The translations under genes were made by a program, and so were the position numbers. From the IMG/VR virus record IMGVR_UViG_2541047739_000006: a stretch of 34,603 bases of DNA. One strand, given 5' to 3'. Under the pieces are notes generated by a model. The model had not been told where the DNA came from. It did no database searches and saw only the letters and a list, made by a program, of their open reading frames with translations. Position 1 is the first letter of the stretch; every line of letters starts with the position of its first letter. The DNA comes from a virus. Lineage: Duplodnaviria; Heunggongvirae; Uroviricota; Caudoviricetes. Positions 1,369 to 24,911 of this stretch are shown here, piece after piece.

Positions 1369-1444
1369 GCCGATATAGCTCAGTTGGTAGAGCAGCGCAT
1401 TCGTAATGCGAAGGTCGTAGGTTCGACTCCTATTATCGGCACCA
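1369..1444 (+). tRNA. thrW: tRNA-Thr, anticodon CGT
   Basis: 76-nt GCCGATATAGCTCAGTTGGTAGAGCAGCGCATTCGTAATGCGAAGGTCGTAGGTTCGACTCCTATTATCGGCACCA; cloverleaf with anticodon loop TTCGTAA and 3' CCA; sits immediately downstream of proA as thrW does in E. coli. Confidence 0.96.
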
Positions 1445-1609: not shown

Positions 1610-2824
1610 GTGAAACTCAATGCCCGTCAAATAGACACAGCCAAGCCAAAAGAGAAGGCTTACAAGCTGGCCGATGGTGGCGGTTTGTATCTCTTGGTAA
1701 AACCTAATGGAGGTAAATACTGGCGACTTAAATATCGTGTAGCTGGTAAAGAGAAGCTATTGGCACTAGGTGTTTATCCTGAGGTTACTCTAGCCGATGC
1801 TCGGGCAAAACGTGAAGATGCGAAAAGAGGTATCGCTGGTGGTATCGATCCGATGGAAGCGAAACGAGAGGAAAAGATTGCCCGGGAAACGCAGTTAAAC
1901 AACACCTTCAAAGATATTGCCCTTGAGTGGCACAGCAGCAAATTAAAAAAATGGTCTGCTGGTTATGCTTCAGACATCCTCGAAGCCTTCAACAAAGATG
2001 TGTTCCCTTACATTGGCAAAAAACCCATCGCCGAAATCAAACCACTTGAACTTCTGAATGTGCTGCGTCGCATCGAGGGGCGCGGTGCTACAGAAAAAGC
2101 CAAAAAAGTGAGGCAACGGTGCGGGGAAGTTTTCCGCTATGCAATAGTCACTGGTCGCGCAGAGTATAACCCTGCACCAGACCTTACTAGCGCGATGCAA
2201 GGCCATGAATCTAATCATTACCCTTTCCTTACAGCCAAAGAATTACCTGATTTTTTCAAGGCATTGTCCAGTTACTCAGGAAGCGCATTGGTTGTTATGG
2301 CGGCTCGTCTACTGATTATCACCGGCTTGCGGACTGGCGAACTACGTGGCGCATTATGGGATGAAATTGATTTCAACAAGGCTATCTGGGAGATACCCGC
2401 TTCACGTATGAAAATGCGGCGGCCTCATATTGTGCCATTGTCTGAGCAGGCTCTTTCGCTTATTGGGAAGATTAGAGAAATAACAGGCAATTACCCTCTT
2501 ATGTTTCCCGGGCGCAATGATCCAAGGAAAACAATGAGCGAGGCCAGCATAAACCAAGTGTTTAAGCGCATTGGCTACGCTGGACGTGTAACTGGTCATG
2601 GGTTCCGGCACACTATGAGTACGATTTTGCATGAGCAGGGCTATAACACTGCGTGGATAGAAACGCAGCTCGCTCACGTTGATAAGAACTCAATTCGTGG
2701 CACATACAACCATGCGCAATATCTGGATGGAAGGCGGGAGATGCTTCAATGGTATGCCGACTATATGGATTCTCTCGAGCATGGCGGAAATGTGGTGCAT
2801 ATGGTGTTTGAAAAACACGCATGA
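1610..2824 (+). CDS. P4-family tyrosine integrase (site-specific recombinase)
   Basis: 404-aa ORF with GTG start next to the tRNA; N-terminus MKLNARQIDTAKPKEKAYKLADGGGLYLLVKPNGGKYWRLKYR is typical of P4/CP4-57-type integrase arm-binding domains; C-terminal catalytic region with HGFRHT and LAHV motifs. Confidence 0.92.
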   Translation: MKLNARQIDTAKPKEKAYKLADGGGLYLLVKPNGGKYWRLKYRVAGKEKLLALGVYPEVTLADARAKREDAKRGIAGGIDPMEAKREEKIARETQLNNTFKDIALEWHSSKLKKWSAGYASDILEAFNKDVFPYIGKKPIAEIKPLELLNVLRRIEGRGATEKAKKVRQRCGEVFRYAIVTGRAEYNPAPDLTSAMQGHESNHYPFLTAKELPDFFKALSSYSGSALVVMAARLLIITGLRTGELRGALWDEIDFNKAIWEIPASRMKMRRPHIVPLSEQALSLIGKIREITGNYPLMFPGRNDPRKTMSEASINQVFKRIGYAGRVTGHGFRHTMSTILHEQGYNTAWIETQLAHVDKNSIRGTYNHAQYLDGRREMLQWYADYMDSLEHGGNVVHMVFEKHA

Positions 2825-3475: not shown

Positions 3476-3679
3476 ATGGCTAATTACAATTCATTAATTC
3501 GTCTCTCTGAAGTTCAAAGGCGAACTGGTTATAGCAAAGCATGGATTTATCGTCTTATTAGTCAGGGGAGGTTCCCTAAACAGGTAAAAATTGGAAGTCG
3601 GGCAATTGCTTTTGTTGAGTCTGAAATAGATGAATGGATTGAGAAGTGTATATTAGAATCTAGAGACGAGGTGGCCTGA
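3476..3679 (+). CDS. alpA: AlpA-family phage transcriptional regulator / excisionase-like protein
   Basis: 67-aa ORF with the ...AFVESEIDEWIEKC... motif characteristic of AlpA/Vis-family HTH proteins of P4-like elements. Confidence 0.8.
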   Translation: MANYNSLIRLSEVQRRTGYSKAWIYRLISQGRFPKQVKIGSRAIAFVESEIDEWIEKCILESRDEVA

Positions 3680-4122: not shown

Positions 4123-4956
4123 ATGAACATCGAAAAAAGCAGATTAATTTCTGAGGCCGCCCCTCATCTGAACGCCTCTCTGGGCACAATTAACGGTAAT
4201 GAATTTGCCGCAATTGTCCCGGTTATTCCTGGTCATATCGGTGGGCGTGAAACCAATATTGTTAGCGCAAAAGCGTTACACAAAGCGTTGGGCGTGGGAA
4301 AAGACTTCTCTACATGGATCACTGATCGCATCTCTGAATATGACTTCACCATTGGGCACGATTACTCAGTCCATAAAACAATTTCCCCAAATTTGGGGAA
4401 AAGCCCGAATGGCGCGGCTTACAGCAAGATAAAGCACTCTGGCAGACCCGGCAAAGACTATCTGTTAAGTGTCGGAATGGCGAAAGAACTGGCAATGATC
4501 GAACGCAATGATCAGGGTCGCGCTATCCGCCGTTATTTCATCCAGTGCGAGGAAGAATTACAGCGTAGCGTTCCTGAAATCGCCGCCCGCTATCGTCGCC
4601 AGCTAAAAGCCCGTCTCAGTGCCGCAAACAACTTTAAGCCAATGTGCGATGCGCTGAATATGGCCCGTGCCGAGATGGGTAAAACGACGCAGCAACACCA
4701 CTACACAAACGAGAGCAATATGATTTCTCGTATCGTTCTTGGTGGGCTAACTGCTAAGCAGTGGGCGCGGATAAATGGCTATTCTGGCGAACCTCGCGAC
4801 CATATGAACGCAGAACAGCTTGAGCACCTCTCATATCTCGAAAGCACCAATATCACGTTAATTGATATGGGCATGGAATATGAGCAGCGCAAAGGAGAAC
4901 TCACCCGCCTGTCGCAACGCTGGCTCGCCAAGCGTCTGGAGGCGGTCCATGTTTAA
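4123..4956 (+). CDS. phage antirepressor-like protein (AntA/AntB-type N-terminal domain)
   Basis: 277-aa ORF; segment ALHKALGVGKDFSTWITDRISEYDFTIGHDYS resembles the AntA/AntB antirepressor domain; family assignment by motif only. Confidence 0.7.
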   Translation: MNIEKSRLISEAAPHLNASLGTINGNEFAAIVPVIPGHIGGRETNIVSAKALHKALGVGKDFSTWITDRISEYDFTIGHDYSVHKTISPNLGKSPNGAAYSKIKHSGRPGKDYLLSVGMAKELAMIERNDQGRAIRRYFIQCEEELQRSVPEIAARYRRQLKARLSAANNFKPMCDALNMARAEMGKTTQQHHYTNESNMISRIVLGGLTAKQWARINGYSGEPRDHMNAEQLEHLSYLESTNITLIDMGMEYEQRKGELTRLSQRWLAKRLEAVHV

Positions 4957-5131: not shown

Positions 5132-5626
5132 CCGTCCAGAAGAAGATATTTTCACTGGCTGGTATGTCACCAAAATCCAGCAATATGACAGCAAAGTCTG
5201 GCATTAATACAGCAGATACAAGCAAAGTTTATCATTTTCTGGTGGTAGGAGCGGATGCCTTAACTATGTCAGAAATTACGGTCGATGGTGTTAGCGTTGA
5301 GAAGGTCAGCGGCTGCGCCAGAGAATTTCTGGTCGTAGATGGCTTTCTCTGCTCGCGTAGTGACTCCACAAAAACCTTCGTCCATACGCGCGACGTTAAC
5401 GAAATGAGCGCGATGTATTGTGCATCTGGTGCTTCCAATACTGAGTTTTCGGAGTCCATAAAAAAGAGCTTGCCGTTATGCGGCAACACGGTTTATGGTT
5501 ATAAGGCACCTCATAAAACGGGTGCCGGGATTGGCGTCCTGAAAATTCTGAAGGCGACATATGACGCGCCGGGTGATGCTGCCAACTTACTGATTTAGTG
5601 TATGATGGTGTTTTTGAGGTGCTCCA

Positions 5627-5902
5627 GTGGCTTCTGTTTCTATCAGCTGTCCCTCCTGTTCAGCTACTGACGGGGTGGTGCGTAACGGCAAAAGCACCGC
5701 CGGACATCAGCGCTATCTCTGCTCTCACTGCCGTAAAACATGGCAACTGCAGTTCACTTACACCGCTTCTCAACCCGGTACGCACCAGAAAATCATTGAT
5801 ATGGCCATGAATGGCGTTGGATGCCGGGCAACAGCCCGCATTATGGGCGTTGGCCTCAACACGATTTTACGTCACTTAAAAAACTCAGGCCGCAGTCGGT
5901 AA
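5627..5902 (+). CDS. insA: IS1 InsA
   Basis: 91-aa [43 protein letters not shown]...; recognised IS1 InsA. Confidence 0.95.
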
Positions 5903-6324
5903 CCTCGCGCATACAGCCGGGCAGTGACGTCATCGTCTGCGCGGAAATGGACGAACAGTGGGGCTATGTCGGGGCTAAATCGCGCCAGCGCTGGCTGTTT
6001 TACGCGTATGACAGGCTCCGGAAGACGGTTGTTGCGCACGTATTCGGTGAACGCACTATGGCGACGCTGGGGCGTCTTATGAGCCTGCTGTCACCCTTTG
6101 ACGTGGTGATATGGATGACGGATGGCTGGCCGCTGTATGAATCCCGCCTGAAGGGAAAGCTGCACGTAATCAGCAAGCGATATACGCAGCGAATTGAGCG
6201 GCATAACCTGAATCTGAGGCAGCACCTGGCACGGCTGGGACGGAAGTCGCTGTCGTTCTCAAAATCGGTGGAGCTGCATGACAAAGTCATCGGGCATTAT
6301 CTGAACATAAAACACTATCAATAA
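5821..6324 (+). CDS. insB: IS1 InsB (expressed as InsAB' by -1 frameshift)
   Basis: 167-aa ...[47 protein letters not shown]...; recognised IS1 InsB. Confidence 0.95.
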
Positions 6325-6961
6325 GTTGGAGTCATTACCGACGCGCCGAGCGTCTTTTTTTATGTCGTAGGTCTGACTCACCCATTTTTTGGGCGTTGGT
6401 GTATAATCCAGCGCCTTTGTCAATCAATGGTGGCTCAGGCGGGGGCTTCTTCGGAAGCGCCGGTATCCTTCAGAGCCGGTTACGCCAACCCTGTCTGGGC
6501 TACCACCAGCGAAATTGGCGTTTCCGGTGGTAGCGTAACCTGCTATCTGAAGGAGGCTGCCACATGCTGGCTACTACCCCTACCCAAAAACCGCAATTTA
6601 TCTGGATTATCGCCGCAGTTCGCCGCGATTGCCCGACAATTACCGCCAAAATTCATCATATTGCTGCCGAGTCTGAACGCGATGCTCGCCGTTCTCTGGT
6701 GCGCGATCACGTCTGCTTTTTTGCTGGTCGTATCCGCATGGAGGTGGCACATGATTAAAACCTACGATGTGCATATGGATCCCCTCGAACGCACAAGCCA
6801 GATCATCACACTGACAGAAGTGATTAACGACATTCTGGTGAGCAACTCTCCCTCACGAGACGAAAGGCTGAAGGCGTTACTCGCGATATTGGATCTCGCC
6901 GTTCGTGACGTTCATTTCCTGCTGGAAGGTGGCGAAATGCCAGGAAAAACGGGGGCAACCA

Positions 6962-8229: not shown

Positions 8230-8239
8230 GGATGGAGCC

Positions 8240-8581: not shown

Positions 8582-8945
8582 AAATGCAGAAATGGCGCTT
8601 AGCTCCGCAATCGGAGAGCAGGTGGCAAAGATTGCTGGTGCTGTGTGGATTCATAACCTTCATTCTACTGGTGAAGAGAAAATGGCAATTCAGACGCCAG
8701 AGGGACGCACCATTACTACATCTCTGAAGCCGTCAGATGTTTGTGATCTGATTTGCGCATTCATGTACCCAGCAATGAGGACTGTCCACGGCGATAAGTG
8801 GAAACTTGCGACAACCGCTGAATTTGATATGTGGCTAAACAATGATGGCATGCTGACTGATTACGGAATAACCAAGTGGCAGATGCTGGTTAGCCATATC
8901 GCAAACGCTATAGACCACGTGGGGTACGGTGATGCGAAACATTGA
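8574..8945 (+). CDS. hypothetical protein
   Basis: 123-aa ORF overlapping both neighbours by a few bases. Confidence 0.6.
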   Translation: MRENAEMALSSAIGEQVAKIAGAVWIHNLHSTGEEKMAIQTPEGRTITTSLKPSDVCDLICAFMYPAMRTVHGDKWKLATTAEFDMWLNNDGMLTDYGITKWQMLVSHIANAIDHVGYGDAKH

Positions 8946-11688
8946 TCTTATCCGTCAGGTTATCAGTGCGTCTGAAAACAACTGGCCTCATGTGCTGGGC
9001 TGCCTGAACATAAATGTCCCTGACTCTCCGCGCCGTCATGCTCCCTGCCCTGCATGTGGGGGCAAAGATCGATTCCGGTTCGATGACAACGGGCGCGGTA
9101 GCTTCATCTGTAATCAGTGCGGCGCTGGTGATGGGCTGGATTTAATTAAACGCGTAAATAACTGCGACACAACAGAGGCGGCGCTTCTTGCCGCTGATGT
9201 TCTGGGTATTGATTACCGGACAACGGAAACACCAGAAGCCACCAGCCAGAAACGGGAACAACTGGAAACCGAGCGCCAGCGACGCGAACAGGAGCGCCTG
9301 AAAAGGGCAGAGAAGGACGAACAACAAAGACGGGATACGTTTTCCCGTCAGTTTGATGACATGCGCAGAAAGGCTGTAAACGGCAAATCTGATTATCTGG
9401 TTGCGAAAGGGGTAGGTGATTTTACATTCCCCGTGTTGCCCGATGGATCTCTGTTGCTGGCGCTGGTGGATAAATCCGGCGCAGTCACAGCAGCACAGAC
9501 TATTACATCACATGGTGAAAAAAGACTCCTGACAGGTTCAGCAAAGCGGGGGGCATATCACGCCATAAACGCGCCAGAAACAACACAGAGCATCTTAATC
9601 GCAGAAGGGCTGGCAACGGCATTATCTGCCCATTTAATTCGTCCAGAGGCGCTGACAGTGGCGGCGATTGATGCCGGGAACCTGTTATATGTCGCCCAGG
9701 TACTGCGGGATAAATTTCCTTCAGCACAAATCATCATTGCTGCGGATAACGACCACAGCGAAGGAAGACAAAACACGGGGAGAATAGCAGCAGAAAAAGC
9801 AGCTTTATCTGTTTCTGGATGGGTGGCATTACCCCCGACAGATCACAAAGCAGACTGGAATGATTACCACCAAAAACACGGCATTAAATGCGCCACAGAA
9901 GCGTTCAATAAGTCAATGTACCAACCACAGGGTAATGGCGTGAAACATGAGCCACAGACCATTGAGGGAAGCGATTTTAAGGTTATGGATACCGACCCAC
10001 TGAAACCAAGAATAGAAAGCCGCGAGGATGGTATTTATTGGGTATCTCCGAGAGCTGACAGCCAGAGTGGAGAAATCATCAATAACGAAAGCTGGTTATG
10101 TTCTCCGTTAAGCGTTATCGGTACTGGCAGAGACGATAAAGACCAGTATCTCATTCTTCGCTGGCTGTCGTTTGGTTCTGAAACGCCGACAACCGCTGCC
10201 ATTCCACTGGCTGATATTGGTGAACGTGAAGGATGGCGCACACTTAAAGCTGGTGGGGTAAATGTCACGACCAAAAGCAGCCTCAGAGCAATACTGGCAG
10301 ACTGGCTACAACGCAGTGGCTCTCGTGAATTGTGGCGTGTTGCTCATGCCACTGGCTGGCAATGCGGAGCGTACATCATGCCTGATGGGGAAATCATCGG
10401 AACACCTGAAAATCCTGTGCTGTTCAGCGGGAGAAGCTCAGCCGCAGCCGGATATACCGTCTCAGGGAGCGCGAAAAGCTGGCGTGATAACGTGGCGCGT
10501 CTGGCCTTTGGTAACTATTCAATGATGACCGGGATCGGCGCAGCACTGGCAGCGCCATTGATTGGGCTGGTGGGCGCTGACGGGTTCGGCATTCATTTCT
10601 ATGAGCAGTCGAGCGCAGGTAAGACCACCACGGCAAACGTGGCGAGCAGCTTATACGGCAACCCTGATTTACTGCGGCTGACGTGGTACGGAACCGCGCT
10701 GGGGCTGGCAAATGAGGCCGCCGCCCACAATGACGGACTAATGCCGCTTGATGAAGTTGGTCAGGGCGCTGATCCTGTCAGCGTTTCACAGTCTGCCTAT
10801 GCGTTATTTAACGGTGTAGGGAAACTGCAAGGCGCTAAAGATGGTGGAAACCGGGATCTAAAACGCTGGCGTACAGTGGCAATCAGCACCGGAGAAATGG
10901 ATTTAGAAACATTTATCGCTACTTCCGGGCGAAAAACCAAAGCCGGGCAACTGGTGCGACTGCTGAATATTCCGTTGAGTAAAGCAGTACGCTTTCACGA
11001 TTACCAGAACGGAAAACAGCACGCAGACGCACTGAAAGACGCTTACCAGCATCACCACGGCGCGTCCGGGCGTGAGTGGATTAAATGGCTGGCAGACCAC
11101 CAGCAACAGGCTATTAAAACCGTTCGTGACTGCGAAAGCAGATGGAGAAGCCTGATCCCATCCGATTATGGTGAGCAGGTTCACCGTGTAGCCGCGCGAT
11201 TTGCCATTCTGGAGGCCGCATTGTTGTTAGGCGAGGTTGTAACAGGCTGGGATGCTCAGACATGCCGTGATGCGATACAGCACAGCTATAACGCATGGTT
11301 GCGCGAGTTCGGCACAGGTAACAAAGAGCATCAGCAGATTATTGAACAAACGGAGGCATTTCTTAATGCCTATGGGCTTAGCCGTTTTGCACCATTTCCA
11401 TACAGCCCGGCAGATTTGCCCATCAAAGATTTAGCCGGATACCGTCAGCGTGGAGAACATGACGAAAGCCCAATGATTTTCTACACATTCCCGGCCACAT
11501 TTGAAAAGGAGATCGCATGTGGTTTCAACGCAAAACAGTTTGCTGAAGTGTTGAAAAAAGCCGGGATGCTAACCCCACCAAACAGCGGTCGTGGATACCA
11601 AAGAAAATCACCACGTATTCAGGGACGACAAATAAACGTTTATGTACTCAATTACCAGCCAGGAGATTATAACTCATCTGAAGAATGA
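8929..11688 (+). CDS. P4 alpha-like primase-helicase (Zn-ribbon + TOPRIM primase + P-loop NTPase)
   Basis: 919-aa ORF; CPACGG...CNQCG zinc ribbon; TOPRIM-like ILIAEGLATALSA ... AADNDHSEG; Walker A SSAGKTT and Walker B LMPLDEVG; immediately followed by iterons. Confidence 0.88.
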   Translation: MMRNIDLIRQVISASENNWPHVLGCLNINVPDSPRRHAPCPACGGKDRFRFDDNGRGSFICNQCGAGDGLDLIKRVNNCDTTEAALLAADVLGIDYRTTETPEATSQKREQLETERQRREQERLKRAEKDEQQRRDTFSRQFDDMRRKAVNGKSDYLVAKGVGDFTFPVLPDGSLLLALVDKSGAVTAAQTITSHGEKRLLTGSAKRGAYHAINAPETTQSILIAEGLATALSAHLIRPEALTVAAIDAGNLLYVAQVLRDKFPSAQIIIAADNDHSEGRQNTGRIAAEKAALSVSGWVALPPTDHKADWNDYHQKHGIKCATEAFNKSMYQPQGNGVKHEPQTIEGSDFKVMDTDPLKPRIESREDGIYWVSPRADSQSGEIINNESWLCSPLSVIGTGRDDKDQYLILRWLSFGSETPTTAAIPLADIGEREGWRTLKAGGVNVTTKSSLRAILADWLQRSGSRELWRVAHATGWQCGAYIMPDGEIIGTPENPVLFSGRSSAAAGYTVSGSAKSWRDNVARLAFGNYSMMTGIGAALAAPLIGLVGADGFGIHFYEQSSAGKTTTANVASSLYGNPDLLRLTWYGTALGLANEAAAHNDGLMPLDEVGQGADPVSVSQSAYALFNGVGKLQGAKDGGNRDLKRWRTVAISTGEMDLETFIATSGRKTKAGQLVRLLNIPLSKAVRFHDYQNGKQHADALKDAYQHHHGASGREWIKWLADHQQQAIKTVRDCESRWRSLIPSDYGEQVHRVAARFAILEAALLLGEVVTGWDAQTCRDAIQHSYNAWLREFGTGNKEHQQIIEQTEAFLNAYGLSRFAPFPYSPADLPIKDLAGYRQRGEHDESPMIFYTFPATFEKEIACGFNAKQFAEVLKKAGMLTPPNSGRGYQRKSPRIQGRQINVYVLNYQPGDYNSSEE

Positions 11689-11706
11689 GCTTCTTCATGT
11701 GCGTAG

Positions 11707-11828
11707 AAAAGGTGTTGGTTCAGTTGGTTCAGTTGGTTCAATTTGTAAAGAGTATTGTTTTATAAGGATTTTATTCTTTTTATTGAACCAACACTGAACC
11801 AACAACACGGTATTTTGAACCAACACAA
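11707..11828. repeat. ori-like iteron module: 3 direct GTTGGTTCA, AT-rich spacer, 3 inverted TGAACCAAC
   Basis: Read directly: AAAAGGTGTTGGTTCAGTTGGTTCAGTTGGTTCAATTTGTAAAGA ... TTGAACCAACACTGAACCAACAACAC ... TTGAACCAACAC, directly 3' of the primase gene; same architecture as the P4 ori with type I iterons. Confidence 0.6.
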
Positions 11829-12143
11829 TGTGACTGAATTGATGCGCACAACACCTGGCTGGCATCAGAGAGTGTTTTACGAGACTTTCGTAAAATCCTG
11901 TGTACAAGGGCGTGACGTTTTTGAAAGTGAGCACTACGAAATTTTCGTAGTTCAGAAAACAGCCTCTGAGAAGTTGTTATGCCTGTTCAGCAAACCATCC
12001 GCATAGCTGATCGCGAATCAAATTACCAATGGAGCCAGAAGCAAGGGCAGAACTGAAAAGCGCCTGCCGTGAAGAGTAATGCGACACCATAAATATAGTT
12101 TTTAGAGTCCATAAAAAACCTGTCAAAACCTGACACACAGAAC

Positions 12144-12178
12144 GATGCCACCAGCTACTGAGCGGTGGCATTTTTTTG
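12144..12178 (+). terminator. intrinsic terminator
   Basis: GATGCCACC-AGCTACTGAGC-GGTGGCATC stem-loop followed by TTTTTTT. Confidence 0.6.
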
Positions 12179-12272
12179 TGCTATTTGTTTCATATTTTGC
12201 AATTACGATGATGAATATTGCGATTTGTGAAACTATAATAACTGTTGTTTTATACAGTTCTAAGGGGGCGTT

Positions 12273-12434
12273 ATGGCTATTTCAGTAAAGCCGGTATTGA
12301 TAAGTGAGAAGCAAATGGAAGCGATAAAGAAAATTCAGGAAGAGCAGCGTAAAAAATCAGGAATTGGAGTAGCGCCAACTCTGCATGAAATTGCACGAGG
12401 GTTAATAGATAAGGCGCTGGCAGGCTGTATGTGA
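12273..12434 (+). CDS. small ribbon-helix-helix-like protein (53 aa)
   Basis: AGGGGG Shine-Dalgarno 6 nt before ATG; beta-strand/helix/G-turn/helix pattern (VKPVLISEKQMEAIKKI...G...TLHEIARGLIDKAL); below the ORF-track length cutoff. Confidence 0.45.
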   Translation: MAISVKPVLISEKQMEAIKKIQEEQRKKSGIGVAPTLHEIARGLIDKALAGCM

Positions 12435-12450
12435 AAATGGATGGCATCGC

Positions 12451-12912
12451 ATGGAACTAAAATTTATTGATAACCCTGTGCGATTACAGGCCTTTCTTAA
12501 CGAGCCAGGCAATACCGAAAATATTGTTGAGCCGGGGCACACGTACTACATCAAGCCTGATGCGGTATATCTCGGCATCTACGAAGGATTAGTGCTGGCT
12601 GGCGTTCATGAAGTGCGTAACTTCTGGCATAGCGTTGTTGAATGCCATGCGGTGTACGACCCCGGATTCCGTGGTGAATATGCACTGCAAGGACATCGAT
12701 TATTCTGCAAATGGCTTCTCGAAAACTCACCATTCCTTAACAGCATTACCATGGTTCCTGACACCACGAAATACGGACGGGCAATTATCCGTTTGCTTGG
12801 CGCTACCCGTGTTGGTCATCTTGATGATGCTTATATCAGATGTGGTAAACCCGTCGGCGTAACGCTTTATCAGTTAACTCGGCAACAATATAAGGAATTC
12901 AGCGAATGTTAA
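12451..12912 (+). CDS. hypothetical protein (possible P22 gp14-like; low confidence)
   Basis: 153-aa ORF, first of a same-strand run of four genes whose sizes (153/225/249+/701 aa) parallel P22 genes 14-7-20-16 as I recall them; similarity not verified. Confidence 0.65.
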   Translation: MELKFIDNPVRLQAFLNEPGNTENIVEPGHTYYIKPDAVYLGIYEGLVLAGVHEVRNFWHSVVECHAVYDPGFRGEYALQGHRLFCKWLLENSPFLNSITMVPDTTKYGRAIIRLLGATRVGHLDDAYIRCGKPVGVTLYQLTRQQYKEFSEC

Positions 12913-13583
12913 TTACCCATATAGCTTATAAACATCTCAATCGTGCCGTATACGAAAAAGGCGGTGATGGTGGTGCCTCTAAAGCTCAGGCGAAGGCCCA
13001 GCAGCAGGCAATTGATTTGCAGCGCGAGCAGTGGAATACGGTGATGAATAATCTCAAGCCGTATGCAGAAGTCGGATTGCCTGCTTTACAACAACTACAA
13101 GGACTGATGACTCTGGAAGGGCAGAATAAAGCCGCGAATGATTTCTTTGGTTCTGGTTTATATAAAACACAGGCAGATCAGGCCCGTTATCAGAACCTTG
13201 TCTCAGCAGAAGCTACCGGGGGGCTTGGCTCAACAGCTACCAGTAACCAGTTATCTTCCATTGCGCCCATGCTTTATAACAATTGGCTCAGTGGGCAAAT
13301 GCAAAATTATGGAAACCTGCTAAATGTCGGGATGAATGCGGCATCAGGGCAGGCAACAGCAGGGCAAAACTACGCCAATAATACCGGACAACTCTTGCAG
13401 GGGCTTGGCGCTATTCGTGCAGGTCAGGCGCAGCAGCCATCCAGTCTTGCGCGTGGTATTGGTGGGGCGGCATCAGGCGCTTTAGCGGGTGCGCAACTTG
13501 GTTCCGTTGTTCCGGGTATAGGTAATGTCGCCGGGGCTATTGGTGGTGGGCTTATTGGTCTTGTTGGGGGGCTTGGATTCTAA
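12906..13583 (+). CDS. Q/G-rich hypothetical protein with glycine-zipper C-terminus (possible phage ejection/internal protein)
   Basis: 225-aa ORF overlapping the upstream stop; C-terminus GGAASGALAGAQLGSVVPGIGNVAGAIGGGLIGLVGGLGF. Confidence 0.65.
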   Translation: MLITHIAYKHLNRAVYEKGGDGGASKAQAKAQQQAIDLQREQWNTVMNNLKPYAEVGLPALQQLQGLMTLEGQNKAANDFFGSGLYKTQADQARYQNLVSAEATGGLGSTATSNQLSSIAPMLYNNWLSGQMQNYGNLLNVGMNAASGQATAGQNYANNTGQLLQGLGAIRAGQAQQPSSLARGIGGAASGALAGAQLGSVVPGIGNVAGAIGGGLIGLVGGLGF

Positions 13584-14327
13584 TGGCGACATGGCAACTT
13601 GGCGGGCTGCCTAGCATGGCACCGCAAAATGATAATGCTCCTCGTTCTTCCGTTCCTCAGCCTGTGCAGTATCAGCAGCAGCCAAACGTAGGTTTAATGG
13701 CGCTACAGGGGCTAAGAGGCGTTGCTGAGATTAATCAGCAGGCACGTCAACAACAGCGTAAAGCAGAGTTTCAGAAAGCATATGCCGGGGCTTTTGAGTC
13801 TGGAGACAGAAACAAAATGCGCAGTCTTATTTCTGAGTATCCAGAAGAATTTGAAAGCGTTCAGAAAGGGATGGGCTTTATTGATGACGACCAGAGAAAT
13901 TCTATTGGTCATCTTGCGACTAGTGCTCAAATCGCATCTTCGCTCGGAACTGGGGCATTTGGAAAATTCATAGCAGATAACGAAGATGAAATGCGTCGTT
14001 TGGGAATTTCTCCTGAGTCTGTTGCCGAAATGCATGTTAATGATCCACAGGGATTCCAGCGGCTTGCTGGTAGTATGGCACTGTTTTCTCTCGGTCATGA
14101 GAAGTACTTCGATATCAAAGATCGAATGGAAGGTCGGGATATTGAGCGTGGCAAGTTGGCAGAGACGATCCGCAGCAATCAAGCCGGAGAAGCACTTCAG
14201 GCGAGAGGGCAGGATATTAGCCGAGCAAATGCGTTAACGTCAGCATATGCACCAACAGCCGCAATGCAGAATTACAATCAATACGCGCAAATGTTAAAGG
14301 CGGATCCAGAGGGGGCTGCGGCATTTG
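13583..14327 (+). pseudogene. hypothetical phage-like protein, 3'-truncated by IS1
   Basis: ORF starts at the upstream stop (ATGG overlap) and runs into the IS1 end at 14328; the apparent stop lies inside IS1. Confidence 0.6.
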
Positions 14328-14342
14328 GGTAATGACTCCAAC

Positions 14343-14846
14343 TTATTGATAGTGTTTTATGTTCAGATAATGCCCGATGACTTTGTCATGCAGCTCCACC
14401 GATTTTGAGAACGACAGCGACTTCCGTCCCAGCCGTGCCAGGTGCTGCCTCAGATTCAGGTTATGCCGCTCAATTCGCTGCGTATATCGCTTGCTGATTA
14501 CGTGCAGCTTTCCCTTCAGGCGGGATTCATACAGCGGCCAGCCATCCGTCATCCATATCACCACGTCAAAGGGTGACAGCAGGCTCATAAGACGCCCCAG
14601 CGTCGCCATAGTGCGTTCACCGAATACGTGCGCAACAACCGTCTTCCGGAGCCTGTCATACGCGTAAAACAGCCAGCGCTGGCGCGATTTAGCCCCGACA
14701 TAGCCCCACTGTTCGTCCATTTCCGCGCAGACGATGACGTCACTGCCCGGCTGTATGCGCGAGGTTACCGACTGCGGCCTGAGTTTTTTAAGTGACGTAA
14801 AATCGTGTTGAGGCCAACGCCCATAATGCGGGCTGTTGCCCGGCAT
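14343..14846 (-). CDS. insB: IS1 InsB
   Basis: Identical 167-aa InsB as at 5821..6324. Confidence 0.95.
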
Positions 14847-15040
14847 CCAACGCCATTCATGGCCATATCAATGATTTTCTGGTGCGTACCGGGTTGAGAA
14901 GCGGTGTAAGTGAACTGCAGTTGCCATGTTTTACGGCAGTGAGAGCAGAGATAGCGCTGATGTCCGGCGGTGCTTTTGCCGTTACGCACCACCCCGTCAG
15001 TAGCTGAACAGGAGGGACAGCTGATAGAAACAGAAGCCAC
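14765..15040 (-). CDS. insA: IS1 InsA
   Basis: Identical 91-aa InsA as at 5627..5902. Confidence 0.95.
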
Positions 15041-15104
15041 TGGAGCACCTCAAAAACACCATCATACACTAAATCAGTAAGTTGGCAGCATCACCGGGTG
15101 ATTA

Positions 15105-17210
15105 ATGGCTAAAGCATGGAAAGATGTTATCGCCTCTCCACAGTATCAGGCGTTAGCACCAGAACAAAAAGCGCAGGCTCAGGAGCAATACTTCAATGAA
15201 GTCGTGGCCCCGCAAGCCGGAGAAAGTGTAGCGCAGGCTAAGCAGGCTTTTTATGCTGCCTATCCACTACCATCAACGAATGAAATAGACCGATCCCAAT
15301 CAGCAACTCAAAATATTCAACATACATCATCTGATAATTCTCTTGCGTCAGGGTATGCAAAGTTAGCTACTCAGCAAAGAGAGGGGCTTGAGCGTTCAGC
15401 AGAACAGGGAGCCAGTCTTGGGGCTGCGATGCGCGATGCTATAACAGGCGAAAGCCGAATGACTCCAGAGATGGAGAGACTGCAAAATGTCGACCTTGCC
15501 CCAGAGTTAACCTCACTCAGCATGGGTGCTCTAAAAGCTCGATGGTCTCAACTTTTCGGCTCTGACGCATCTCAGGAAAAGATTCTTCAGAGCATGGGAG
15601 CGAAATTAAGGCAGGATGAGAAGGGTAACACTATCGTTTCCCTGCCATCCGGTGATTATGCTCTGAACAAGCCGGGTTTATCGCCGCAAGACGTGGCATC
15701 GTTTCTGGCTAATGCGCTGGCGTTTACACCAGCGGGCAGGGCTGGAACGGTGCTTGGTGCCATAGGAAAATCAGCAGCTACAGATTTAGCACTACAGGGA
15801 GCCACCAGCCTTGCTGGTGGAGAAGATATTGATCCGTTACAAACGGTAATTTCTGCTGGCATTGGTGGTATTGGTAAGGGGCTGGAAAATACAGCGAGTG
15901 CGGTTTCGAGGGCTGTTCGTGGTGATATGTCGCCTGAAGCAAAGGCTGCTGTCAACTTTGCATCGGAAAGAAATCTGCCGTTAATGACCAGTGACATGCT
16001 GAAAGATAAAACCTTTATGCAGAGTCAGGCTCAGACATTAGGCGAAAGAGTTCCTTTTTTTGGAACCGGTAAGAATCGGCTGAATCAACAACAAGCACGA
16101 GAAAATTTAGTCAGAACATTTAGCGATGGTCTGGGTGGCATTTCTGATAAACAGCTTTATGAATCTGCGACTAAAGGGCAACAAAAATTCATTGAGGCAG
16201 CAGGAAAGCGATATAACCGCATAATTGACGCTATGGGGGATACCCCTGTCGATCTCTCAAACACGGTAAAAGCTATCGACAATCAGATTGCCGTGTTAAG
16301 CCGCCCGGGCAAATCTCAGGATAGAGCCGCGGTAAAAGTCTTGCAGCAATTTAAAGACGATATCACCAGCGGACCAAATGACCTGCGTCTGGCGAGGGAA
16401 AACAGAACCGATCTTCGAAAGCGATTTATGGCGTCATCTGACACTGTTGATAAAGATACGCTCCAGAAAGCCAGCGATATTATCTACAAGGCATATACGG
16501 CGGATATGAAAAAAGCCGTAGCCAAAAATCTTGGAGCAGACGAAGCCATTAATATGGCAAGGGTTGATCGGTCATGGTCTAAATTCAATGACATGATGGG
16601 AAGAACGCGCGTTCAAAAGGCAATAGCCAGCGGTAAGGCCACGCCTGAGGATGTAACAAAACTCGTTTTTAGCCAAAGCCCATCAGAACGTTCTCAGCTT
16701 TACAGGCTTCTGGATGACAATGGTAGGCAAAACGCACGAGCAGCCATAGTTCAGAATGCTGTAGATAAGGCGACTGATCCGTCTGGAAATATCAGTGTTG
16801 AGAAGTTTATTAATGCGTTACACCGGAACAGGAAGCAATCAGCAACTTTCTTTAAAGGCGTACATGGAAAGGAACTGGACGGCGTTATTAAATACCTCAA
16901 CGATACAAGACACGCGGCAAAAGCGAACGTTCAAAACTTAAATGGTCAGCAGCTTTATGGATTGTTAGTTGGTGGTGGCATCATAAACGCAGCAGTATTA
17001 GCGGGGATGCTAAAAACGGCTGCGTTTGTTGTTCCTGCTGCTGGTGCCGTAGGCGGAGCAGCGAAGGCATACGAAAGCCCTGTTATACGAAATGCCTTGT
17101 TACGTCTGGCAAATACGCCAAAAGGTAGCACAGCATATGACAGAGCGATCAGTACGGTCACACAATCGCTCACCAGAGTCGCACAGGCATCACAAAAAGA
17201 AGCTCAATAA
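15105..17210 (+). CDS. large A/Q/G-rich hypothetical protein (possible phage ejection / DNA-transfer protein)
   Basis: 701-aa ORF starting 10 nt after the IS1 end (in-frame TGA 2 codons upstream); low-complexity coiled-coil-like N-terminus and hydrophobic glycine-rich C-terminal segment. Confidence 0.65.
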   Translation: MAKAWKDVIASPQYQALAPEQKAQAQEQYFNEVVAPQAGESVAQAKQAFYAAYPLPSTNEIDRSQSATQNIQHTSSDNSLASGYAKLATQQREGLERSAEQGASLGAAMRDAITGESRMTPEMERLQNVDLAPELTSLSMGALKARWSQLFGSDASQEKILQSMGAKLRQDEKGNTIVSLPSGDYALNKPGLSPQDVASFLANALAFTPAGRAGTVLGAIGKSAATDLALQGATSLAGGEDIDPLQTVISAGIGGIGKGLENTASAVSRAVRGDMSPEAKAAVNFASERNLPLMTSDMLKDKTFMQSQAQTLGERVPFFGTGKNRLNQQQARENLVRTFSDGLGGISDKQLYESATKGQQKFIEAAGKRYNRIIDAMGDTPVDLSNTVKAIDNQIAVLSRPGKSQDRAAVKVLQQFKDDITSGPNDLRLARENRTDLRKRFMASSDTVDKDTLQKASDIIYKAYTADMKKAVAKNLGADEAINMARVDRSWSKFNDMMGRTRVQKAIASGKATPEDVTKLVFSQSPSERSQLYRLLDDNGRQNARAAIVQNAVDKATDPSGNISVEKFINALHRNRKQSATFFKGVHGKELDGVIKYLNDTRHAAKANVQNLNGQQLYGLLVGGGIINAAVLAGMLKTAAFVVPAAGAVGGAAKAYESPVIRNALLRLANTPKGSTAYDRAISTVTQSLTRVAQASQKEAQ

Positions 17211-17229
17211 CTGGTTAGCCATGGATGGC

Positions 17230-17844
17230 TTAGATATCTCTGCTGTCTCCATTAGGAAATAAAAGATAATATGGATTTGCCTTTCTTGCTCTCCTTGCTT
17301 CACCCGGATACCTGTTAGTCAGTAGCTTGCATAATGAGCAGAGAACAACACTCAAGAAAATTCCGAATGAGAAGATCAATATCTCACCAAAAATCAATGG
17401 CGATATTAAATTTTCAGGATTTAATGATAAGTCAATGTTAAAAACATATTGAGCAATACCAGTAAGTATCAATAATATAATCCCTATGGAATACATTGCT
17501 GTTTCCCAAACATCAGACAGTCTATTTTTGAATTGTTCGCTGGAGTAGTAGTTTGTTATAAAGTCAGAAAAATCACTCTCATATGCATCATCTTTAGGTG
17601 ATGTTAGAAATCCTCTGTCTCTCCATACCTTCTCCCAATTAGTCGATTCTTTTTTTAAGGAAAAATAAATATGTATTCCCAAAAGGATAGCCAAAATTGG
17701 TGTTAGCTCTAAAAAATAGAATGTTATGGAATAAATAATACTGCCATGTTCAAACTCATCTGGGACTATCATGTATGCACAAAAATAAATTGAAAAGTAC
17801 ACCATGCAGATAGTTAGCAATTCTTTAGTATCTTTTCTGCTCAC
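17230..17844 (-). CDS. multi-pass membrane protein, AT-rich, unknown function
   Basis: 204-aa ORF with several hydrophobic segments (ICMVYFSIYFCAYMIV, LTPILAILLGIHIYF, IGIILLILTGIAQYVF, IFGEILIFSFGIFLSVVLC); composition sharply more AT-rich than its neighbours. Confidence 0.6.
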   Translation of the reverse strand: MSRKDTKELLTICMVYFSIYFCAYMIVPDEFEHGSIIYSITFYFLELTPILAILLGIHIYFSLKKESTNWEKVWRDRGFLTSPKDDAYESDFSDFITNYYSSEQFKNRLSDVWETAMYSIGIILLILTGIAQYVFNIDLSLNPENLISPLIFGEILIFSFGIFLSVVLCSLCKLLTNRYPGEARRARKANPYYLLFPNGDSRDI

Positions 17845-17957
17845 ACCAACCCCCTTTAGCGTTGTTTAGAATGGCAATCATCATATATCCAAGACATGGC
17901 ATTTGGTACATAGCTTGGGTCGGGATTTCAAGTCCGCTCCCAGTTGATGGGGCCGTT

Positions 17958-18342
17958 ACAGTACGCGCATATCCGCTTTATGTGAAACAGGAAGATTTTT
18001 CTGATATCACTGCCACAGCAAAACACCAATTTCGTGACCAGTACGCGCGCGAGGGGTATCAGTTGCAAAATTTTTTGCAACTGCGTCCGACCAGTACGCA
18101 CACGATGGCGGGGGATACCATAAAACTGTTCTCTACATGAGACAGAGTGGTGGTGATGTGTTGATTATCGGCGTATATGCGCACAGGACGCGCTATGACG
18201 ATGTTTTATGCGGGTACACCAATCACATGTATCTGGTGTGATAAATCGCGTTACATGACCTCTCATGTTGTGCTGGTGGTTATCACGACTTTCTGAATCT
18301 GGCCTTTGCCTGATATTTTGCGACAAGTACGCGCGCGTAGCA
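17958..18342. repeat. repeat family with alternating-CG palindromic core (CAGTACGCGC at 17958; GACCAGTACGCGCGCGA at 18036; GACCAGTACGCACACGA at 18089; GACAAGTACGCGCGCGTAGCA at 18322) plus an 11-bp inverted repeat CAGTTGCAAAA-tt-TTTTGCAACTG at 18060..18083
   Basis: Read directly; a fifth copy lies at 19712..19734. Confidence 0.6.
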
Positions 18343-18365
18343 TCGACAGCATACACATTGGATAT

Positions 18366-18587
18366 TCATTTTGTGACCAATGCGATAAGTAGCGGGATAA
18401 GAATTGATAAAATCAACAGGCCGATGATCCACTTTTGATTTTCACTGGCCTTATCTCTATTTTCATCAATCTTATCAATAATTCGACGCTCCAATCCGTG
18501 CATATCACCGCGAATGGCAATCATCTCATTGCGAACATCAGGGAAGTGGTTGGCTTGATGTTCAATGTGTGGCGTTCTGCCTTTCAT
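18366..18587 (-). CDS. small tail-anchored membrane protein (coiled-coil N-terminus + C-terminal TM)
   Basis: 73-aa ORF; charged N-terminal region then WIIGLLILSILIPLLIALV; resembles XhlA/holin-like small proteins, not verified. Confidence 0.5.
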   Translation of the reverse strand: MKGRTPHIEHQANHFPDVRNEMIAIRGDMHGLERRIIDKIDENRDKASENQKWIIGLLILSILIPLLIALVTK

Positions 18588-18666
18588 ATCTGATCCTCAC
18601 CTATCGTCACTACCTGCTGGTGTATAAAGGTATTGGCCCAAGCAACTTTCCAATGGGCACTCATGT

Positions 18667-19122
18667 TTATACGCTGACCTTACAATCAATCACTGCTTTT
18701 AGCTTTTCAGCATTGCTTCCCTGACGCTTCCACGCGCTGTAAATATCTTTATCCCACGCTTTACCAGCTTTTGTTTGATAGCCTGCTTCATTGATCCGTT
18801 CAGCTATCACACGCCCATTATCAAATCCCTGTTGGATGGTATCGGCAATGATCTTTATAACTGCCGTTTCGTTATATGGTTTTGGTGGGATGTTCGGCTT
18901 TCCGGCAATAAGCGACGCAGCGGCTTTTTCCATGCGCTCCACCAGCCCAAGCATTCGTGAATCAATAGACTTTTCCGGCTGCCCCAGCTTCATGCGAATC
19001 GCATCAACAAGCCAGGAGGTTTTATCTCCTCCAGAAGCGAGAACAGACCGATTAAACTCATCCTGCAATTCAGATGGGATGCGGAACGCGACCAGATTAG
19101 ATTTGCTCATTGCAAAGACCAT
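18667..19122 (-). CDS. ribbon-helix-helix (Arc/MetJ-type) domain protein with C-terminal extension
   Basis: 151-aa ORF; N-terminus NLVAFRIPSELQDEFNRSVLASGGDKTSWLVDAIRMKL fits the beta-strand/helix/G-turn/helix RHH pattern (compare P22 Arc/Mnt). Confidence 0.6.
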   Translation of the reverse strand: MVFAMSKSNLVAFRIPSELQDEFNRSVLASGGDKTSWLVDAIRMKLGQPEKSIDSRMLGLVERMEKAAASLIAGKPNIPPKPYNETAVIKIIADTIQQGFDNGRVIAERINEAGYQTKAGKAWDKDIYSAWKRQGSNAEKLKAVIDCKVSV

Positions 19123-19220
19123 ATCAGTGAGTAATATCCATACAGTATACCACTGTATAACACTGTTATACGCTCAAATATCAGCCAGAAAATAACGGAC
19201 CAATCACAAATCTATCGCTG

Positions 19221-19352
19221 TGTTGTTGGTTCAGAGCTGGGCTGTGTTGGTTCAAAATGAGTTGATGTTGGTTCAATATTTCAGAAAAAACACAATAAAA
19301 ACAACAATCTTTACAAATTGAACCAACTGAACCAACTGAACCAACACCTTTT
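19221..19352. repeat. crr-like second iteron module; inverted copy of the ori module
   Basis: The reverse complement begins with the same 43 nt as the ori module (AAAAGGTGTTGGTTCAGTTGGTTCAGTTGGTTCAATTTGTAAAGA), followed by an AT-rich spacer and three TGAACCAAC copies. Confidence 0.55.
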
Positions 19353-19381
19353 TGCTTATCTATATAATCTGAGAGGCAGAA

Positions 19382-19663
19382 ATGATAAGGGACAGGAAAG
19401 CTGAAGAGCTGGAGTCAAAAGGGCTATACCGGAGAGCTGCCGCACGATGGATGGAAGTCATGCTGTTATGCACCGAGGACGATGATCGGGAATGGATAAA
19501 GCGCCGCCGTGAAACGTGTCTGGAGAACGTGAAGCGCCCGCCCGTGAAGGTTGAGGAATTTGGCGACCTGCATAAAGCTGTTACCGAAACGCAACACCGC
19601 ATGGGGATAGCGCAACCGAACGGTAACGCCTTCCGGTTAAATGGCGGCAAGAGGCAAAGGTAG
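19382..19663 (+). CDS. PerC-family transcriptional activator homolog
   Basis: 93-aa ORF; N-terminus MIRDRKAEELESKGLYRRAAARWMEVML matches the PerC/Pch family signature as I recall it. Confidence 0.6.
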   Translation: MIRDRKAEELESKGLYRRAAARWMEVMLLCTEDDDREWIKRRRETCLENVKRPPVKVEEFGDLHKAVTETQHRMGIAQPNGNAFRLNGGKRQR

Positions 19664-19960
19664 ACCACCAGAGGGAAATCATCCTCTGGCTGGCGGTTTC
19701 TGGTATTTCGGGACAAGTACGCGCGCGCGTAGCACCCAATCGGTGAGGAAATAGCGGCGACCTGAATGGTCAAAATCACAACGCAGCTATCCCCGTAAGC
19801 AGCGCTTAACGGAATAGCAGTAACCTGAATCCAGTGGGGAGGGGGTAGTCAAATCTCTACAGCCCTGACTATCCGGGACTGCCCGCCCCATCGTTTTTTT
19901 ATACCCGCGAAAAATGAAATTTAATCCGGGCGTGTTTCATTCTTCCAGAGGGTATGACGT

Positions 19961-20146
19961 ATGACACCACGCGAAATAGCCTTATTGACCATCGCCAAAC
20001 TTGAGCACGGAGGCCACCAGCTTACACAGGCAGATCAACGGGAGATAGAACGATCAGTTAATGCCGATATAGCCCGGCGCGACAGGTTCCGCGAAATGAT
20101 GCGAGCACCTGCCTACCAGTGGAAGAAGCCAGCGCCGCGCAGGTAG
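19961..20146 (+). CDS. hypothetical small protein
   Basis: 61-aa ORF with a GAGGG Shine-Dalgarno-like sequence upstream; no recognisable domain. Confidence 0.35.
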   Translation: MTPREIALLTIAKLEHGGHQLTQADQREIERSVNADIARRDRFREMMRAPAYQWKKPAPRR

Positions 20147-20266
20147 ATATGGGATTATTCCACATGTAACTTATGCGTATTAAGCAAATTTCCTTTATTC
20201 ACCTTTACAGAATTGTGAGTACGTCAGTATCGTTATCCTTCCGATTCGCATTTATTCAGGATTTGC

Positions 20267-21279: not shown

Positions 21280-21378
21280 ATGGGGGTACTTTTGGGGGTA
21301 TCTATAAAAAATGAACAATAAAAAAGGCAACAAAAACAAAGCTTATCGCCTATGTGTATTGTTCCTATTATCGCACAA
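21280..21378 (+). other. putative attR of the P4-like element (arm-type repeat ATGGGGGTACTTTTGGGGGTAT plus degenerate core TCCTATTATCG-CACAA)
   Basis: 21/22 match to the arm repeat at 1557; TCCTATTATCG at 21363..21373 matches the thrW 3' end at 1428..1438, then diverges. Confidence 0.4.
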
Positions 21379-24892: not shown

Positions 24893-24911
24893 AGAAGAGA
24901 AGGAGAAAACT

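Follow-up and report, generated by a model that had tools for sequence, protein, structure and literature searches.

Positions 12,273 to 17,210 of the 34,603-nucleotide stretch of DNA analysed here (IMG/VR virus record IMGVR_UViG_2541047739_000006, Caudoviricetes; the whole stretch is called the window) almost certainly contain the ejection-protein operon of a phage-inducible chromosomal island (PICI) of the EcCIMP1 type, with relatives of genes 14, 7, 20 and 16 of phage P22. Judged from its gene content, the island is a member of the recently described EcCIMP1 satellite family and has a P4-like backbone. It forms an integrative element of ~20 kb at thrW (window ~1445-21380); the related island of E. 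coli EC38 (locus L001), which is free of insertion sequences (IS), measures ~18.5 kb. A sequence-only reading of this stretch had suggested the remnant of a P22-like prophage at thrW. That interpretation is wrong, and the element is a damaged satellite. The best explanation overall is an EcCIMP1-type ejection operon that works in intact relatives as proposed below, a reading to which we give an even chance.

The run consists of five closely packed open reading frames (ORFs), with overlaps of 7 and 1 nt:

12273..12434, + strand: 53-aa leader gene, first gene of the ejection operon
12451..12912, + strand: P22 gene 14 homologue, 153 aa (DUF2824); Pfam PF11039, 207 bits, E 1.5e-61; phrog_651
12906..13583, + strand: P22 gene 7 homologue, 225 aa; Pfam PF25688 P22_gp7, 244.3 bits (cut-off 28), E 1.9e-72
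13583..14332, + strand: P22 gene 20 homologue, 249-aa ORF, N-terminal part; Pfam PF16928 Inj_translocase, 200.6 bits (cut-off 29.7), E 3.6e-59
15105..17210, + strand: P22 gene 16 homologue, 701 aa, intact; phrog_770 'DNA transfer protein', E 3.6e-159

The sequence-only reading had described a small ORF followed by 153-, 225-, 249- and 701-aa frames on one strand, and all five were recovered as listed. The kinship it proposed with P22 genes 14, 7, 20 and 16 is borne out by Pfam and PHROG family membership and by BLASTP against P22 and Sf6, where E values for the ejection (E) proteins span 4e-6 to 2e-95; similarity to podovirus ejection proteins was found by both BLASTP and profile search. The gp14 homologue shares 84% identity with Kapi1_055 and 23% with gp14 of P22 and Sf6. 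Identities to P22 and Sf6 are 56% and 54% for the gp7 homologue and 38% and 46% for the N-terminus of gp20, of which a full-length relative is 53% identical to APSE gp20. The gp16 homologue matches Sf6 gp13 at 33% identity over its full length (E 2e-95) and P22 gp16 at 30% (E 9e-52), and the nearest sequenced phage gp16 is only 67% identical (N7/HZ41). Gene order 14-7-20-16 and the overlapping starts and stops are as in P22 and Sf6. A PDB sequence search returned no solved relative of the gp14, gp7, gp20 or gp16 homologues.

The products had also been characterised as low-complexity proteins rich in Gln, Gly and Ala with glycine-zipper C-termini. This description holds for the gp7 homologue, which has 42% Q+G+A and a GxxxG zipper at its C-terminus. 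It applies moderately to the gp20 and gp16 homologues (29-32% Q+G+A), where the G/A-rich hydrophobic stretch of gp16 lies near, not at, the C-terminus, and it fails for the gp14 homologue, which has 17% Q+G+A and is not low-complexity. PGAP/RefSeq marks gp16 as a pseudogene 'missing C-terminus' in several genomes (L001 17305-19410; L026, L025); the label is an annotation artefact, since the translated gp16 ORF runs for 701 codons without interruption.

The truncation of gene 20 by IS1, which the sequence-only reading had noticed, proved to be a replacement:

14328..15095, - strand: IS1 copy 2, in place of 667 bp of the 3' half of gene 20; no target-site duplication
5572..6339, + strand: IS1 copy 1, a simple insertion in the annotated Ash ORF; 9-bp target duplication GACGCGCCG, from the L001 comparison and the junctions

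Because 667 bp of IS-free EC38 are replaced and no target duplication is present, we attribute copy 2 to an IS1-mediated adjacent deletion. IS1-free relatives such as EC38 still have these 667 bp. About 247 native gp20 codons are left in the window, compared with 473 in relatives, where the full-length protein has 473 or 488 aa. The C-terminus of gp20 is essential in P22, and a module whose gp20 lacks this half is very probably dead as an ejection system here. Together, the insertions in the Ash ORF and in gene 20 suggest that this island copy is decaying. What is said below about function concerns the intact relatives, the ejection module of the window copy being probably non-functional. The second IS1 (5572-6339) had escaped the sequence-only reading, as had the SieA-like gene and the satellite backbone around the cluster.

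The backbone comprises the following elements:

1369..1444, + strand: tRNA-Thr (CGT), thrW; ARAGORN, Rfam
1428-1446, + strand: attL core, the thrW 3' end TCCTATTATCGGCACCATT; repeat comparison
1610..2824, + strand: tyrosine integrase with arm-binding domain; Pfam Phage_int_M, Arm-DNA-bind_3, Phage_integrase
3476..3679, + strand: AlpA-like helix-turn-helix (HTH) excisionase/regulator; PHROG 'excisionase and transcriptional regulator', E 3e-11; window coordinates transferred from L001 6554-6757
4123..4956, + strand: AntA/AntB-type antirepressor; Pfam AntA, E 2.7e-21; PHROG anti-repressor Ant
6423..6510, + strand: C4 antisense RNA (C4/CI type); Rfam RF01695, 79.9 bits (gathering score 45), E 1.6e-14
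8929..11688, + strand: primase/helicase, 919 aa, P4 alpha-like; zinc ribbon, TOPRIM and DUF927 domains
11715..11830, no strand: iteron array, GGTTCAGTT three times, then inverted GAACCAAC four times; read from the sequence
19382..19663, + strand: PerC-family regulator; Pfam PerC, E 3.7e-30; an accessory gene typical of EcCIMP1-type PICIs
21361..21378, + strand: attR-like core TCCTATTATCGCACAATC, right end of the island; repeat comparison

The window begins within proA. Arm-like repeats ATGGGGGTACTTATGGGGGTAT lie at ~1557 and recur at 21280, ahead of the attR-like core, and are thus present at both ends of the island. The attR-like form, TCCTATTATCGCAC(C/A)AT(T/C), is an imperfect copy of the thrW 3' end with a core of 18-19 nt; the exact 22-nt tRNA 3' end is absent from the window as an attR, and L001 has a cleaner attR, TCCTATTATCGCACCATT. 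The primase is identified by profile matches to Pfam DUF927 (E 3.5e-47), Toprim_3 and Zn_Ribbon_Prim and to PHROG DNA primase (E 2.2e-178), and the iteron array that follows it is probably the replication origin. Several small ORFs also lie upstream of the ejection cluster. Pfam and PHROG scans of the island ORFs found no head, tail or lysis genes. An integrase at one end, an AlpA-family regulator, a primase, a length of 10-20 kb, core genes in one direction and no structural or lysis genes are the traits that define PICIs, and the island has all of them.

EcCIMP1 itself is a PICI located between proA and yagU in E. coli MP1, with integrase, AlpA, antirepressor, Ash, primase, 'DNA transfer' and PerC genes (Pick, Stadel & Raivio, ISME J 2025; PMC11773190). 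It excises only upon induction of the P22-like phage vB_EcoP_Kapi1, which transduces it very inefficiently, at low frequency (PMC11773190). The window island occupies the same integration site, on the proA-thrW side, and the AntA/B, Ash, DUF927 primase and PerC genes match, EcCIMP1 carrying the same kind of PerC gene (PMC11773190). In a comparison with the MP1 locus, the AlpA-like HTH protein and the 53-aa leader share WP accessions with EC38, the window's close relative; the EcCIMP1 integrase shares its WP accession with family member L021. In EcCIMP1, gp14-gp7-gp20-gp16 likewise follow the primase, with gp14 98% and gp7 99% identical to the window's. The two islands differ in gp20 (439 aa) and gp16 (906 aa, annotated as lytic transglycosylase domain-containing), which are other alleles in EcCIMP1, and in a lipoprotein gene that takes the place of the SieA-like gene there; the window copy instead bears two IS1. 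The EcCIMP1 paper describes the genes as 'similar to DNA transfer proteins/DUF2824' and hypothetical, with a guessed packaging role, and the words ejection, pac and SieA are absent from it (PMC11773190).

With P4-like satellites the island shares a P4-type integrase, an AlpA-like regulator, C4 RNA, Ash and Icd-like genes and an alpha-like primase with iterons. In contrast to P4, the island ORFs scanned gave no Pfam or PHROG match to Psu, Delta or Sid, and a query with one form of the P2/P4 cos sequence found no match at up to 3 mismatches. The helpers of P4 are P2-like myoviruses, whereas here they are P22-like podoviruses with headful (pac) packaging. The P22-like ejection cluster (P22 14, 7, 20, 16 and sieA; Sf6 genes 10-13) has homologous proteins in the same order, an exclusion gene on the opposite strand after gene 16, and the same mosaic evolution, in which the N- and C-terminal halves of gp20 are swapped independently. 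However, the island version stands outside a late assembly operon, lacks gp26, gp10, gp4, coat, portal and terminase genes, and has its own leader gene and promoter.

These comparisons bear on whether the element is a P22-like prophage that decayed in situ at thrW and in doing so lost the genes for head, tail and lysis. P22 itself integrates at thrW, integrases of P22-like prophages share 47-57% identity with that of the island, and the gene order 14-7-20-16-sieA is that of P22, all as a decayed prophage would have it. Yet the same compact architecture, with both attachment (att) sites, is found in hundreds of genomes and also at another attachment site, and the genes between integrase and cluster are of P4/PICI type (C4 RNA, Ash, alpha-like primase) rather than lambdoid early genes. 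The ejection genes recur behind the primase of EcCIMP1-like PICIs, at two integration sites, next to either of two primase types, and in diverged islands too. Integrase and E genes share one strand in the island, whereas the two lie on opposite strands in five of six P22-like prophages with a recognised integrase. A member of the family, EcCIMP1, is experimentally a mobilisable PICI (PMC11773190), and copies not struck by IS elements or deletion are intact (8/12 loci) with dN/dS of 0.1-0.3. We therefore regard in-situ decay as highly improbable. Pfam and PHROG scans for coat, portal, terminase, gp4/gp10/gp26 and tailspike genes, or remnants of them, found none in the island.

The satellite reading is further informed by how widely the module is distributed. 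The junction from primase through the 53-aa gene to gp14 and gp7 occurs in 237 of 5,426 complete E. coli genomes, and at least 80% of island-type gp20 plus gp16 is found at 92-100% identity in 301 of the 5,426; ~5% of complete E. coli genomes carry the ejection module behind an island primase. Exact full-length E proteins are present on hundreds to more than 1,000 contigs of public assemblies. The module occupies two attachment sites, thrW and yicC/dinD, and at thrW follows either of two primase types, DUF927 or DUF5906. Islands at yicC/dinD have a different integrase and contain only a 57-aa leader, gp20 and gp16, with no gp14 or gp7. Islands always keep gp20 and gp16 as a pair, even where gp14 and gp7 have been dropped. 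All E genes are intact in eight of 12 inspected island loci, a sample biased toward partial matches. Compared between islands, gp16 has a dN/dS of 0.09-0.23, with 80 synonymous and 51 non-synonymous changes separating the most distant pair; the values are 0.26-0.31 for gp20 and ~0.1 for gp7 and gp14.

Two diverged islands (L049 and L073; GC content 0.54), which a 24-mer search of IMG/VR revealed, have backbone proteins at 55-88% amino acid identity. Their ejection genes are at 83-85% for the leader, 78% for gp14, 87% for gp7 and 44% for gp20; in L049 a different type of gp16 follows gp20, and the L073 locus stops inside gp7. A gp16 scan with one genome per species yielded only one further Escherichia island. 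The gp16 relatives at 30-39% identity with enough flanking sequence, from 10 other species (12 loci), were all in complete P22-like prophages, and all 12 of these true prophages have gp4-gp10-gp26 upstream of the E genes together with coat and/or scaffold matches.

Exchange with such prophages is visible within the islands. Residues ~91-701 of the window gp16 are ~95% identical to gp16 of a complete P22-like prophage of APEC O1. The yicC-subtype gp20 is chimeric, with residues 1-210 matching the gp20 of the complete (APEC O1) prophage at ~95% identity and a C-terminal part of ~270 aa of island type, for which the best phage relative is APSE gp20 at 53%. The gene at the sieA position swaps independently of the E genes. 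Such extensive mosaicism, and the frequency with which IS1, IS1203, IS3-family elements and a deletion have independently broken the genes, would also be expected if genes 14-7-20-16 and the sieA-position gene had been captured from a P22-like phage and only the exclusion (moron) gene were selected, the E genes looking intact through youth and recombination. Against this, a conserved leader, promoter and operator of non-phage origin belong to the operon, which is kept in islands with backbones at 55-88% amino acid identity and different gp20/gp16 alleles. The 701-codon ORF has stayed open across a dS of ~0.2, and the subtype without gp14 and gp7 retains the interacting gp20/gp16 pair. Passive hitch-hiking of the E genes is thus improbable in our view, and the sequence comparisons point to the ejection module as a maintained part of the island rather than an accident.

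The region ahead of the ejection operon contains two control elements:

12147..12177, + strand: intrinsic terminator, a hairpin (GCCACC...GGTGGC) with T-run, closing the replication operon; terminator scan
12234..12257, + strand: ejection-operon promoter, -10 TATAAT (12234-12239) followed by the palindrome CTGTTGTTTTATACAG (12242-12257); cross-island conservation

In the diverged islands the terminator stem is preserved with different bases on both arms (alignment judged by eye), and TATAAT and CTGTTGTTTTATACAG, three bases apart, are kept in both L049 and L073. The promoter appeared only through this cross-island conservation: a sigma-70 consensus scan upstream of the ejection operon found nothing. 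The intergenic region between primase and operon showed no similarity to phage late-promoter regions. The window has just two CTGT-N8-ACAG sites; CTGTTGTTTTATACAG is one of them and is plausible as a LexA box. If it acts as one, the ejection operon would be switched on upon DNA damage, coinciding with induction of the helper prophage.

The island-specific 53-aa leader always precedes the ejection genes and is 83-85% identical in the diverged islands; it had no tblastn match in 50,697 phage records. Its AlphaFold2 model (mean pLDDT 77.6) shows an extended N-terminus followed by two helices. The sequence-only reading had called this small ORF ribbon-helix-helix-like, which is plausible; Pfam gave no match, and the best Foldseek match (E 7.2) fell outside the threshold of E<=0.001. 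The leader is possibly a ribbon-helix-helix regulator.

Upstream of the C4 RNA, the island contains two short stretches derived from phage small-terminase genes (terS):

5273..5379, - strand: 107-nt fragment of a P22-type small-terminase gene (gene 3); blastn 87.8% identity, E 2e-29, P22 coordinates 4-110
5442..5466, + strand: 25-nt patch TGAGTTTTCGGAGTCCATAAAAAAG; 25/25 match, L020 1688-1712, to codons 47-55 of an APEC O1-type prophage terS

The 107-nt fragment, found in all E. coli islands sampled, begins precisely where the annotated 22-bp pac site of P22 begins (P22 4-25). The island version of this site, GAAGGTTTTTGTGGAGTCACTA, agrees with P22 pac at 16 of the 22 bases and with the published, empirical pseudo-pac pattern of P22 (PMC11226127) at 16 of 17 positions. 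A BLAST comparison between the islands and the part of the APEC O1 prophage that lies outside the E genes revealed the second patch, TGAGTTTTCGGAGTCCATAAAAAAG. It lies 63 nt from the 107-nt fragment, which precedes it on the other strand. In IMG/VR, 53 phage terS genes and 17 islands contain its 24-mer core, which is exact in the diverged islands despite an unalignable 5' flank.

L049 (1913-2051) and L073 (4174-4312) have, besides the patch coding for EFSESIKK, two further terS-like patches just upstream (EFRDKYARG and EFSAQYAR), the first of which matches the Sf6 TerS region at 20 of 25 nt. The upstream patch of L066 (~4150-4218) is another one and codes for EFSDQYAR. All three patches of L049 and L073 lie within ~140 nt but in three different reading frames, and are therefore not relics of one protein. 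The Sf6 pac site reportedly falls within the terS segment coding for the DNA-binding domain. The terS-derived patches are candidates for an array of pac mimics that would serve several TerS specificities, with the 25-nt patch a candidate mimic for the APEC O1 type of TerS. A RefSeq 355-aa 'Ash family' ORF (window 5125-6969; L001 8203-9270) overlaps two of the terS-derived patches and the C4 RNA. Ash/regulator profiles match only residues ~106-233 of this ORF, and its N-terminal third is for that reason probably non-coding functional DNA.

Directly after gene 16, at the position and in the orientation of P22 sieA, lies a further gene:

17230..17844, - strand: SieA-like polytopic inner-membrane protein, 204 aa

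The gap between gene 16 and this gene is 19 nt in the window and 22 nt in P22. The protein resembles P22 SieA (PMC10883804) in gene position, in a shared RYPGEA motif, in four to five hydrophobic, transmembrane (TM)-like segments and in 28.7% identity over 108 aa (E 1.5e-6, BLASTP in a small search), and it matches phrog_7745 at E 4.4e-4. Its extra ~40 N-terminal residues fit the published description of non-type-A SieA proteins (PMC10883804). In all cases examined in detail, sieA was found in P22-like prophages (PMC10883804), whereas the predicted exclusion gene here belongs to a satellite; a tblastn search of the phage collection gave no match. Every island variant has an envelope protein gene after gp16, which encodes a SieA-like protein, a 129-aa TM protein, a secreted 146-aa protein or a lipoprotein. 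The 129-aa TM protein is 90% identical to the protein at the same spot in the APEC O1 prophage. In EcCIMP1 (E. coli MP1, L189 12632-13330) a 232-aa lipoprotein with an LAGC lipobox directly follows gp16; it is a candidate source of the superinfection immunity of that island.

Previous studies of P22 offer a framework for how the operon might act. E proteins enter P22 procapsids independently and in a scaffold-dependent manner, gp7 and gp20 via their N-terminal parts (PMC10883804, PMC8402733), and for gp20 the N-terminal 314 aa are enough to bind procapsids (PMC8402733). Complete foreign E-protein sets work in P22, while gp16 and gp20 must be cognate, and escape from SieA maps to the C-terminal regions of gp16 and gp20 (PMC10883804). 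We propose, as a possibility that falls somewhat short of even, that the satellite loads its own ejection proteins into helper capsids in place of those of the helper. When a P22-like helper enters lytic growth, the island would excise and replicate from its primase and iteron origin, and the helper terminase would package island DNA from the terS-derived pac-like patches at 5273-5466. Island E proteins would enter helper procapsids by their N-terminal, scaffold-dependent loading regions and, after adsorption, build the trans-envelope DNA conduit, so that particles from island-carrying cells would deliver DNA through the island-specified gp20/gp16 pair. A plausible pay-off is entry into recipients whose P22-like prophages exclude the conduit type of the helper in the manner of SieA, and/or a cost to the helper; the SieA-like gene may meanwhile shield the carrier cell. 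Only tentatively, and with rather more doubt, do we extend this to the family: EcCIMP1-like islands may specialise on P22-like podoviruses with a cognate gp20/gp16 conduit of their own (with or without gp14/gp7) and an array of pac mimics (P22-, APEC O1-type, Sf6-like and others), under an SOS/LexA switch.

Several observations weigh against this proposal. Four of the 12 inspected copies, the window included, are broken by IS1, IS1203, an IS3-family element or a deletion. The low dN/dS is no proof of selection inside the islands, because the divergence may have been imported from phages by recombination, and patchy mosaicism is visible; purifying selection within phages may account for part of the signal. 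The P22-type pac-like sequence of the island has 6 mismatches in 22, and its exact form occurs in 16 IMG/VR loci, of which 13 are islands, three are too short to classify and none is a phage terS. An invariant run of 31 nt in terS is not exceptional among 80 sequences that are 99-100% identical in protein, and the 24-mer remains a candidate pac site. The proven helper Kapi1 has an Sf6-type TerS without the 24-mer; this would fit the very low transfer of EcCIMP1 and predicts that better helpers exist. EcCIMP1 has no effect on helper titres (PMC11773190). Finally, the module sits in the accessory hot spot of PICIs next to the primase gene (pri), near AbiD in relatives, which fits a purely defensive role as well.

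Such a role, the main rival to the proposal, was allowed for in the sequence-only reading, whose caveat of a possible anti-phage function is still valid. Island gp20 and gp16 could co-assemble with those of a phage into mismatched, non-functional conduits, or could block incoming DNA together with the SieA-like protein, with island transfer being independent of them. When only gp16 or only gp20 of P22 is foreign, the resulting virions contain the foreign protein but are not infectious (PMC10883804; Leavitt et al., mBio 2024), and the pri-adjacent hot spot holds PICI immune systems, including Tai systems that block phage tail assembly (PMC11364771). AbiD among the neighbours in relatives and the envelope protein gene after gp16 in every island variant point the same way, as does the superinfection immunity that EcCIMP1 adds to Kapi1 lysogens, no known defence system having been detected in that island (PMC11773190). 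However, EcCIMP1 neither lowered Kapi1 titres after induction nor affected infection of non-lysogens (PMC11773190), and a poison would spoil the satellite's own particles too. A complete cognate gp14-7-20-16 set with phage-matched N-terminal loading regions exceeds what a poison needs. No PADLOC model matched the E proteins, the 53-aa ORF or the SieA-like protein, the only match being AbiD in relatives. Interference of this kind is, on balance, unlikely, and the loading of island E proteins into helper capsids is the function that we continue to favour.

That function would follow a logic shared with capsid-forming PICIs (cf-PICIs), CpmAB of Staphylococcus aureus pathogenicity islands (SaPIs), Sid of P4 and Tai of PICIs, namely that satellites encode proteins homologous to helper structural proteins or able to modify them, and keep accessory genes beside pri. 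In the literature on satellites and PICIs that we searched, we found no description of a satellite encoding DNA-ejection (internal virion) proteins. The EcCIMP1 family itself is known; for the terS-derived pac-like patches, the conserved LexA-box-like promoter and the chimeric gp20, no description turned up in the literature searched. The analysis offers candidate answers to two questions left open for EcCIMP1, with packaging possibly proceeding via the 5273-5466 patches and immunity possibly arising from the cognate gp20/gp16 and from the SieA-like gene or another envelope gene. The proposal predicts that efficient helpers are phages with an APEC O1-type TerS, not Kapi1. If correct, a swap of the ejection machinery would add a new layer to molecular piracy, acting on DNA delivery beyond capsid size or packaging, and would link satellites to the arms race between SieA and the E proteins of P22. 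As ~5% of complete E. coli genomes carry the module, it may bear on patterns of transduction and phage resistance in nature.

Other genes to the right of the SieA-like gene vary among relatives. An AbiD-family abortive-infection gene lies between the SieA-like gene and PerC in relatives (L001 20913-21890), where the window has unrelated sequence (18347-18711). Two other relatives have a disrupted Abi gene, one through an IS3-family element and one through an internal stop. A PRiA4_ORF3-family gene (20267-20809; Pfam E 1.1e-42) lies between PerC and the attR-like site, and several relatives have the same layout.

The remainder of the window (21.4-34.6 kb; 21400-34603) is a separate, AT-rich phage-like element with a GC content of 0.35-0.40, in which the following genes were recognised:

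25112-25828: replication-initiator-like gene
27941-28969: major-head-protein-like gene
29274-30254 and 31471-32439: tape-measure-like gene, split by an IS3-family transposase (IS 30179-31084)
32474-33187: tail-fibre/endolysin-like gene
33269-34603, - strand: integrase

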